Of a stretch of DNA of 64,000 bases, positions 61,826 through 61,860 are shown piece after piece. The stretch lies in NCBI RefSeq assembly GCF_003334335.1, contig NZ_QOWQ01000010.1. One strand, 5' to 3'. How positions within the stretch are numbered: position 1 is the first letter of the stretch; every line of letters begins with the position of its first letter. A program made the position numbers and the translations under genes. The stretch comes from Escherichia coli (lineage in GTDB: Bacteria > Pseudomonadota > Gammaproteobacteria > Enterobacterales > Enterobacteriaceae). A model generated the notes under the pieces. That model had not been told where the DNA came from. It did no database searches and worked only from the letters and a program-made list of their open reading frames with translations.

Positions 61826-61860
61826 GACCTGGGACTTGTACCCGGGTCGGTATTTTTTTG
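61826..61860 (+). terminator. intrinsic terminator inside the greA 5' leader (attenuator; source of the GraL leader transcript as I recall)
   Basis: gacctggg-acttgta-cccgggtc-ggta-ttttttt, about 95 bp upstream of the greA ATG. Confidence 0.45.

Follow-up and report, generated by a model that had tools for sequence, protein, structure and literature searches.

The closest described system to the element considered here is the leader of Escherichia coli greA itself. Potrykus et al. (2010; PMC2836576) reported that greA is expressed from two strong, overlapping promoters, the σ70-dependent P1 and the σE-dependent P2, whose start lies 11 bp downstream of the P1 start, and that downstream of both lies an intrinsic terminator, an 11 bp stem and then AU7GCU2. 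About two-thirds of transcripts terminate at this leader (66% in vivo, about 60% in vitro), yielding GraL RNAs of 50–60 nt from P1 and 40–50 nt from P2 with 3′ ends distributed over about ten adjacent positions (PMC2836576). Termination of ~60% is obtained with pure RNA polymerase and is constant through growth; the pure enzyme releases the short RNAs from immobilised templates, and neither GreA nor GreB has an effect in vitro (PMC2836576). When the terminator was added to a P1P2–lacZ fusion, activity fell ~3-fold, to the level given by the whole spacer, and northern blots revealed terminator-dependent clusters of ~45 and ~55 nt (PMC2836576). Mutants in which the stem was swapped, disrupted or shortened were also made, and termination efficiency falls when the G-U/U-G pairs at the stem base are disrupted or when the stem is cut from 11 to 7 bp (PMC2836576). 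The in vivo 3′ ends of GraL are known from northern blots, mostly of plasmid-borne constructs; the single-copy signal was ‘barely detectable’ in 2010 (PMC2836576), and chromosomal GraL was quantified in 2019 (PMC6829880). A literature search for genome-wide 3′-end (Term-seq) studies naming GraL or greA found none that was relevant.

Dylewski et al. (2019; PMC6829880) subsequently reported that autorepression by GreA requires GraL in cis. Deletion of greA derepresses a fusion ~3-fold, GraL is ~4-fold lower in the deletion strain and returns when GreA is supplied, and the catalytically dead D41A variant of GreA does not repress (PMC6829880). Autoregulation is unaffected by promoter replacement and remains intact when everything after +59 is removed, whereas repression is largely lost, with termination in vitro persisting, when positions +1 to +18 are scrambled or the two hairpin arms are exchanged (PMC6829880). 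The effect of GreA on termination is observed in vivo only; pure RNA polymerase plus GreA does not reproduce it, and thus an extra factor or an indirect route is required. Nus factors, Hfq and σE have been excluded as its cause. In the authors’ view, GraL fits neither the classic attenuator nor the riboswitch. A trans action of GraL has been reported too, nudE being the likely target. The same leader is represented in Rfam by RF01769 (‘Enterobacteria greA leader’), a family derived from the premature-terminator survey of Naville and Gautheret (2010; PMC2965389).

The GraL terminator in the dacB–greA spacer

The window analyzed here is the whole 64-kb stretch of E. coli DNA, and all coordinates refer to it. 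Within it, dacB and greA are divergently transcribed from either side of a 247-bp spacer that contains the terminator.

60273–61706, minus strand: dacB coding sequence, the divergent upstream neighbour (list of open reading frames and RefSeq annotation of the identical MG1655 stretch)
61823–61851, plus strand: terminator hairpin, with stem I at 61823–61833, a 7-nt loop at 61834–61840 and stem II at 61841–61851 (fold, terminator scan and compensatory change)
61852–61863, plus strand: A + U7 + GCUU, the U-rich tract over which termination is imprecise (read from the sequence; the ‘AU7GCU2’ of PMC2836576)
61954–62430, plus strand: greA coding sequence, 158 amino acids (list of open reading frames and RefSeq annotation)

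An earlier note on this DNA, made from the letters alone, had placed a hairpin followed by U7 in the greA leader, about 95 bp before the start codon and on the coding strand. Direct reading bears this out: gacctggg (61826–61833), acttgta (61834–61840), cccgggtc (61841–61848), ggta (61849–61852) and T7 (61853–61859) follow one another as described, T7 has ended by position 61860, the G of GCTT (61860–61863), and 95 nt separate the last U (61859) from the greA ATG (61954) on the greA coding strand. The hairpin itself had been drawn with an 8-bp stem and with ggta as a spacer, and this part needs correction. In the predicted fold, GGU (61849–61851) pairs with GCU (61823–61825), so that the stem is 11 bp long and a single A (61852) separates it from U7. 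The 11 pairs comprise seven G-C, one A-U and three G-U.

The hairpin has a predicted free energy of −19.6 kcal/mol, compared with −9.4 ± 2.5 kcal/mol for dinucleotide shuffles (z = −4.08; 1 of 200 shuffles as good), and it is both the minimum-free-energy (MFE) and the centroid structure in the full P1 and P2 transcripts, which themselves score z = −3.8 and z = −4.8, respectively, with none of 200 shuffles as good for P2. Because the G-U pairs turn into C-A mismatches on the minus strand, the reverse complement reaches only −11.1 kcal/mol; the structure is therefore specific to greA-sense (plus-strand) RNA. The element has the makeup of an intrinsic terminator, a G+C-rich stem-loop followed by a U-tract on the transcribed strand.

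The stretch from 61700 to 61960 is 100% identical to the dacB–greA spacer of E. coli K-12 MG1655 and was found in all 5,426 complete E. coli genomes searched; the 62-nt GraL stretch (61805–61866) is at least 99% identical in 5,106 of these 5,426. RefSeq/PGAP annotation of complete E. coli genomes contains no GraL feature, with ‘none’ in every listed row, and because RefSeq lists nothing as GraL this annotation is unusable as independent evidence. The earlier note had also predicted premature intrinsic termination with release of a short leader RNA, and had given the name GraL. The identity with MG1655, the match to RF01769 and the occurrence at 61823–61863 of the published 11 bp stem followed by AU7GCU2 (Potrykus et al. 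2010) uphold the prediction, and the name is that of the element in PMC2836576. End mapping and a leader–lacZ fusion with and without the hairpin had been suggested as checks; most such work is already in print, namely northern blots, stem mutants and lacZ fusions that carry or lack the terminator, including the ~3-fold effect of the terminator. We found no evidence that contradicts the identification, and regard it as nearly certain that the hairpin and U7 are GraL, the intrinsic (Rho-independent) terminator already reported for the 5′ leader of E. coli greA. This terminator has been known from published work since 2010 and is represented in Rfam.

In the last 20 kb of the 64-kb stretch, the GraL hairpin is among the three strongest terminator-pattern matches, the other two being the obgE terminator and the greA/yhbY terminator. 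Between the convergent greA (plus strand) and yhbY (minus strand), a perfect 10-bp palindromic hairpin (AAAAGGCCGC-TAT-GCGGCCTTTT, 62475–62497) with A-runs and T-runs on its flanks is apparently a bidirectional intrinsic terminator; it also gives weak, sub-threshold Rfam matches to STnc540 and STnc420. Between obgE, which ends at 60087, and the 3′ end of dacB, the segment 60100–60265 carries REP-like palindromic repeats (gcctgatgcgctacgcttatcaggcctac; gccggataaggcgtttacgccgcatccggc), after which comes a strong hairpin and U-tract at 60239–60265.

Promoters and the GraL RNA

The greA AUG is at +150 relative to P1 (Fig. 1 legend, PMC6829880), and an AUG at 61954 therefore places the P1 start at 61805 (61954 − 149). 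With the published 11-bp offset, the P2 start is at 61816.

61772–61800, plus strand: putative σ70-type P1 promoter, with −35 ATGACC (61772–61777), a 17-nt spacer and −10 TAAAAT (61795–61800) (promoter scan)
61783–61810, plus strand: σE-type P2 promoter, GGAACTT (61783–61789), N16 and TCAAA (61806–61810)
61805–61863, plus strand: GraL RNA from P1 (+1 to +59), with P2 transcripts starting at 61816 and 3′ ends scattered over UAU7GCU2 (61851–61863)
61805–61822, plus strand: unstructured 18-nt 5′ segment of GraL (+1 to +18), unpaired in the fold and needed for full GreA autorepression (PMC6829880)

On this scale, the published anatomy of GraL fits the sequence exactly. The segments defined in PMC6829880 are +1 to +18 (the 5′ part that was scrambled), +19 to +48 (the hairpin region) and +59 (the end of the U-rich tail); +19 to +48, the hairpin plus A, converts to 61823–61852, and +59, the end of GCUU, converts to 61863. 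The dinucleotides used to prime initiation in PMC2836576 fit as well, with ApU for P1 matching A61805–T61806 and ApA for P2 matching A61816–A61817. The stem begins 18 nt from the P1 start and 7 nt from the P2 start. P1 is described as σ70-dependent (PMC2836576), the −35 and −10 hexamers are near-invariant among 23 Enterobacterales, and we infer from sequence that ATGACC and TAAAAT probably belong to this promoter. For P2, the segment 61783–61810 is the sole exact match in 64 kb to the σE consensus GGAACTT-N16-TCNAA given in the Figure 1 legend of PMC2836576, where 0.06 matches are expected. The published layout of overlapping σ70 and σE promoters with starts 11 bp apart is thus found in the sequence, with promoter activity taken from the literature, and GraL lies where it was described, in the dacB–greA spacer, on the greA strand and between P1/P2 and the greA AUG.

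Conservation across Enterobacterales and the Rfam model

For comparison, 80 greA loci were taken from one-genome-per-species collections. In the window, the Rfam family for this leader matches over its full length (model positions 1–124 of 124), and only the last ~54 nt of the match are transcribed from P1.

61737–61858, plus strand: match to Rfam RF01769, ‘Enterobacteria greA leader’ (127.5 bits, gathering score 60, E = 1.2e-24)

Of 29 Enterobacterales-type loci tested, 22 score above the RF01769 threshold, ranging from Escherichia to Hafnia, Photorhabdus, Pantoea and Rosenbergiella; Plesiomonas, Budvicia, reduced symbionts and all non-Enterobacterales loci tested gave no match. In a plain MAFFT alignment of 23 Enterobacterales leaders, which was not fitted to any structure, 86.6% of cells in the terminator stem are paired, and changes on both sides occur in 10 of its 11 pairs. 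None of 500 column shuffles reaches the observed values, and all register-slid controls are clearly lower. The terminator helix is kept by compensatory change, and the stem is under selection across Enterobacterales.

The three helices that RF01769 draws upstream of the terminator (61737–61807; 15 pairs) behave differently. Across the same 23 species, none of the 15 pairs shows compensatory change, each substitution disrupts pairing, and their scores are no higher than those of shuffles. Nearly all of their length precedes the mapped starts (61805 and 61816), and they fall on near-invariant promoter blocks, namely AAAGTAAACGATGACC, GAACT and TAAAAT. This upstream region of RF01769 is conserved as promoter DNA and not as RNA structure. 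Thus, the model’s terminator hairpin falls on that of GraL at 61823–61851 and this part alone behaves as RNA structure, whereas the first ~68 model positions correspond to DNA upstream of the mapped starts; that about half of the model covers untranscribed promoter DNA is a mildly new point.

Strong conservation within 61737–61804 (GTCATACTACGG, AAAGTAAACGATGACC) fits promoter or regulatory DNA common to the divergent dacB and greA. The GTCAT…ATGAC pairing (61737–61741 / 61772–61776) is also an inverted repeat at the DNA level.

The leader beyond the terminator

Transcripts that pass the terminator carry a further leader segment, in which two more hairpins are predicted before the greA ribosome-binding site.

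61864–61893, plus strand: second hairpin, 7 bp (61869–61875 / 61884–61890) with a 3-bp extension, loop AAGGAG (61875–61880) and AUG (61883–61885)
61905–61926, plus strand: third predicted hairpin of the read-through leader, GGGGUGGGU-GAAG-ACUUGCCCU (MFE folds)
61941–61946, plus strand: greA Shine-Dalgarno sequence AGAGGU, 8 nt before the AUG (read from the sequence)

The earlier note had pointed to a second GC-rich structure, cccggtaaggagttatgccggg, overlapping a Shine-Dalgarno-like AAGGAG. The structure is present at 61869–61890 as noted, but the importance given to it is not supported: neither the motif nor the AUG is conserved, and sequence after +59 is dispensable for autoregulation. Its predicted free energy of −13.3 kcal/mol is modestly better than that of shuffles (z = −2.03; 8 of 200 as good). 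A leader mini-ORF starting at AUG 61883 (MPGRPNSRGG*, 10 codons) was considered and rejected, given a spacing of 2 nt between AAGGAG and the AUG, a GUG at this position in E. albertii and the absence of any conserved leader peptide in 23 species. The AAGGAG motif is absent in Citrobacter and beyond; in Citrobacter, the loop that holds it is wholly different and the stem of the second hairpin (CUCUGGCA / UGCCAGAG) is kept. Close relatives each fold some hairpins after the terminator, but in a nine-species alignment of this leader, which is too divergent to be aligned reliably, the second and third hairpins are 57–61% paired, no better than shuffled or slid controls. The same region gives weak ‘P3/P4’ primer-extension signals, to which the 2010 authors ascribed a post-transcriptional origin (PMC2836576); that the second and third hairpins cause these signals is speculation. 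Outside the Escherichia/Enterobacter group, a motif, (G)UCAGGAUGA(C), is retained ~35–45 nt before the greA ATG in a post-terminator leader that otherwise varies, and is followed by a U-run in some species; it occurs in loci L010, L012, L016, L018, L019, L020, L023, L024 and L034 and is absent in E. coli.

Structure models also raise the possibility, which we consider quite unlikely, that GCUUCU (61860–61865), directly after U7, acts in core Enterobacteriaceae as an anti-Shine-Dalgarno sequence for AGAGGU (61941–61946) of greA. RNAalifold returns the GCUUCU/AGAGGU pairing as its sole consensus helix, and the E. coli centroid structure contains it. In E. coli, E. albertii, Citrobacter, E. cloacae and Enterobacter sp. 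Bisph1, all close relatives, the modelled probability that the Shine-Dalgarno sequence pairs with the first 10 nt is 0.79–0.98, compared with ~0.1 in shuffles. Both sides of the helix are invariant, and hence there is no covariation; the GAGG of the Shine-Dalgarno sequence is in any case invariant or nearly so in 23 species. Among the species tested, the pairing is absent outside the core Enterobacteriaceae clade, and the E. coli MFE structure uses an alternative partner, CAGGAA. Pyrimidine-rich tails pair easily with any Shine-Dalgarno sequence. If the pairing does form, it would close the whole post-terminator leader of read-through transcripts into one folded domain, and would amount to an undescribed translational layer of greA control that is physically coupled to the terminator.

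Alternative explanations

In a classical switchable attenuator, an upstream antiterminator would compete with the terminator hairpin and a signal would set the choice between them. Naville and Gautheret reported ‘a clear antiterminator structure’ in the greA and rnk leaders (PMC2965389), and the Rfam consensus draws its three helices in the corresponding place. These helices at 61737–61807, however, fall almost wholly outside the RNA, because they lie upstream of the mapped starts, and their conserved part is promoter DNA that shows no compensatory change in 23 species. The RNA that does precede the stem, 18 or 7 nt, is unpaired, and the terminator dominates the ensemble; a search for an alternative fold in the P1 and P2 transcripts found none, with the 5′ 18 nt single-stranded. 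Upstream of the terminator, we likewise found no antiterminator, leader peptide, aptamer or conserved open reading frame of the kind that marks attenuators and riboswitches. Termination of ~60% by pure RNA polymerase, constant through growth, and the dispensability of sequence past +59 also speak against a switch, which we regard as very improbable. For greA, our comparison argues against the ‘clear antiterminator’ of PMC2965389, which is disfavoured, and agrees with the view of the experimenters.

It is less improbable, although still unlikely, that GraL is primarily a free-standing, trans-acting small RNA gene and that greA is expressed by leakage through its terminator; on this view selection would favour the RNA itself rather than the control of greA dosage. 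Overproducing GraL, but not a scrambled version of it, gives a fitness advantage in competition, overexpression alters more than 100 genes, nudE is a likely trans target, ~40 synthetic-lethal partners have been reported, and the 18-nt 5′ segment is fairly conserved. This conservation is confounded by overlap of the segment with the σE −10 element and discriminator of P2, however, and the trans targets are known from overexpression, whereas GraL supplied in trans has no effect on greA. Moreover, a small RNA gene is compatible with attenuation, as the terminator cuts read-through into greA ~3-fold and is needed in cis for autorepression. That the hairpin is a chance inverted repeat beside a T-run, or the terminator of another gene or of the opposite strand, has a negligible probability. 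Simple terminator patterns are indeed common (41 in 20 kb, compared with 23 expected), which favours chance, but a z score of −4, an 11-bp stem, covariation in 10 of 11 pairs, the Rfam match and direct experiments weigh against it, and chance is already refuted by the published in vitro release assays and lacZ fusions. A 3′ terminator of an upstream co-directional gene was rejected, as dacB diverges from greA in the window and in every one of the 33 loci with a DacB match, and no gene therefore ends in the spacer. An opposite-strand or bidirectional terminator was rejected because the minus-strand fold is much weaker and is followed by no U-run.

Mechanism and comparison with other systems

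In the published account, the GraL element works as follows. The σ70 promoter P1 (61805) and the σE promoter P2 (61816) start RNA 18 or 7 nt before the 11-bp G+C-rich hairpin, and RNA polymerase releases ~2/3 of transcripts at the hairpin and A-U7-GCUU as GraL RNAs, with the remaining third reading through to become greA mRNA. An alternative antiterminator fold plays no part; the terminator is leaky by design, and the weak G-U/U-G pairs at the base of its stem set both efficiency and imprecision. In vivo, catalytically active GreA raises GraL and lowers read-through, producing negative autoregulation that depends in cis on the sequence of GraL. GreA serves E. coli RNA polymerase as its main factor against backtracking and for transcript proofreading, and must be kept at a steady dose; this dose is set by the leader terminator, which also yields a small RNA. 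The present analysis contributes the anatomy of the element, its identity with the published one, its strand specificity and the selection on its stem across Enterobacterales. Rediscovery mainly shows that a leader terminator of this kind is recognizable from raw sequence, and brings the identity of the extra factor behind GreA-enhanced termination no closer. Two further points are mildly new, namely the clade-limited pairing of GCUUCU with the Shine-Dalgarno sequence, as modelled, and a positional analogue in Pasteurellaceae.

This candidate analogue is Aggregatibacter sRNA 69 (Rfam RF02904), which, like GraL, lies on the greA strand in a divergent dacB–greA spacer and is accompanied by a hairpin and U-tract before greA. 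The loci differ in that RF02904 has no sequence similarity to GraL and RF01769 does not match there, and the Pasteurellaceae terminator lies ~30 nt from the greA AUG, compared with 95 nt in E. coli. The small RNA and terminator of Pasteurellaceae look like an independent analogue of the GraL arrangement. In the Pasteurellaceae loci L026, L029, L031 and L033, the two elements are at about 1331–1426 and 1440–1476 in locus coordinates, with the greA ATG at 1501, and in L031 the hairpin and U-tract read GCTGTGGAATCC-ttg-GGATTCCACGG-TTTTTCTTTT. Aeromonas and some Shewanella loci have similar hairpins and U-tracts ~30 nt upstream of greA.

With the GraL terminator of PMC2836576 and PMC6829880, the element in the window shares locus and sequence without any difference, and is that element itself. 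More broadly, GraL resembles classical attenuators and riboswitches, such as the trp leader and the T-box, in that premature intrinsic termination in a 5′ leader sets downstream expression, and it resembles the SreA-type dual-function riboswitch in that a trans action has likewise been reported for the released short RNA. By contrast with these systems, GraL has neither an antiterminator nor a leader peptide, and its 18 nt of preceding RNA leave no room for an aptamer. Termination at GraL is instead the default, and the effector, GreA, increases termination rather than relieving it.
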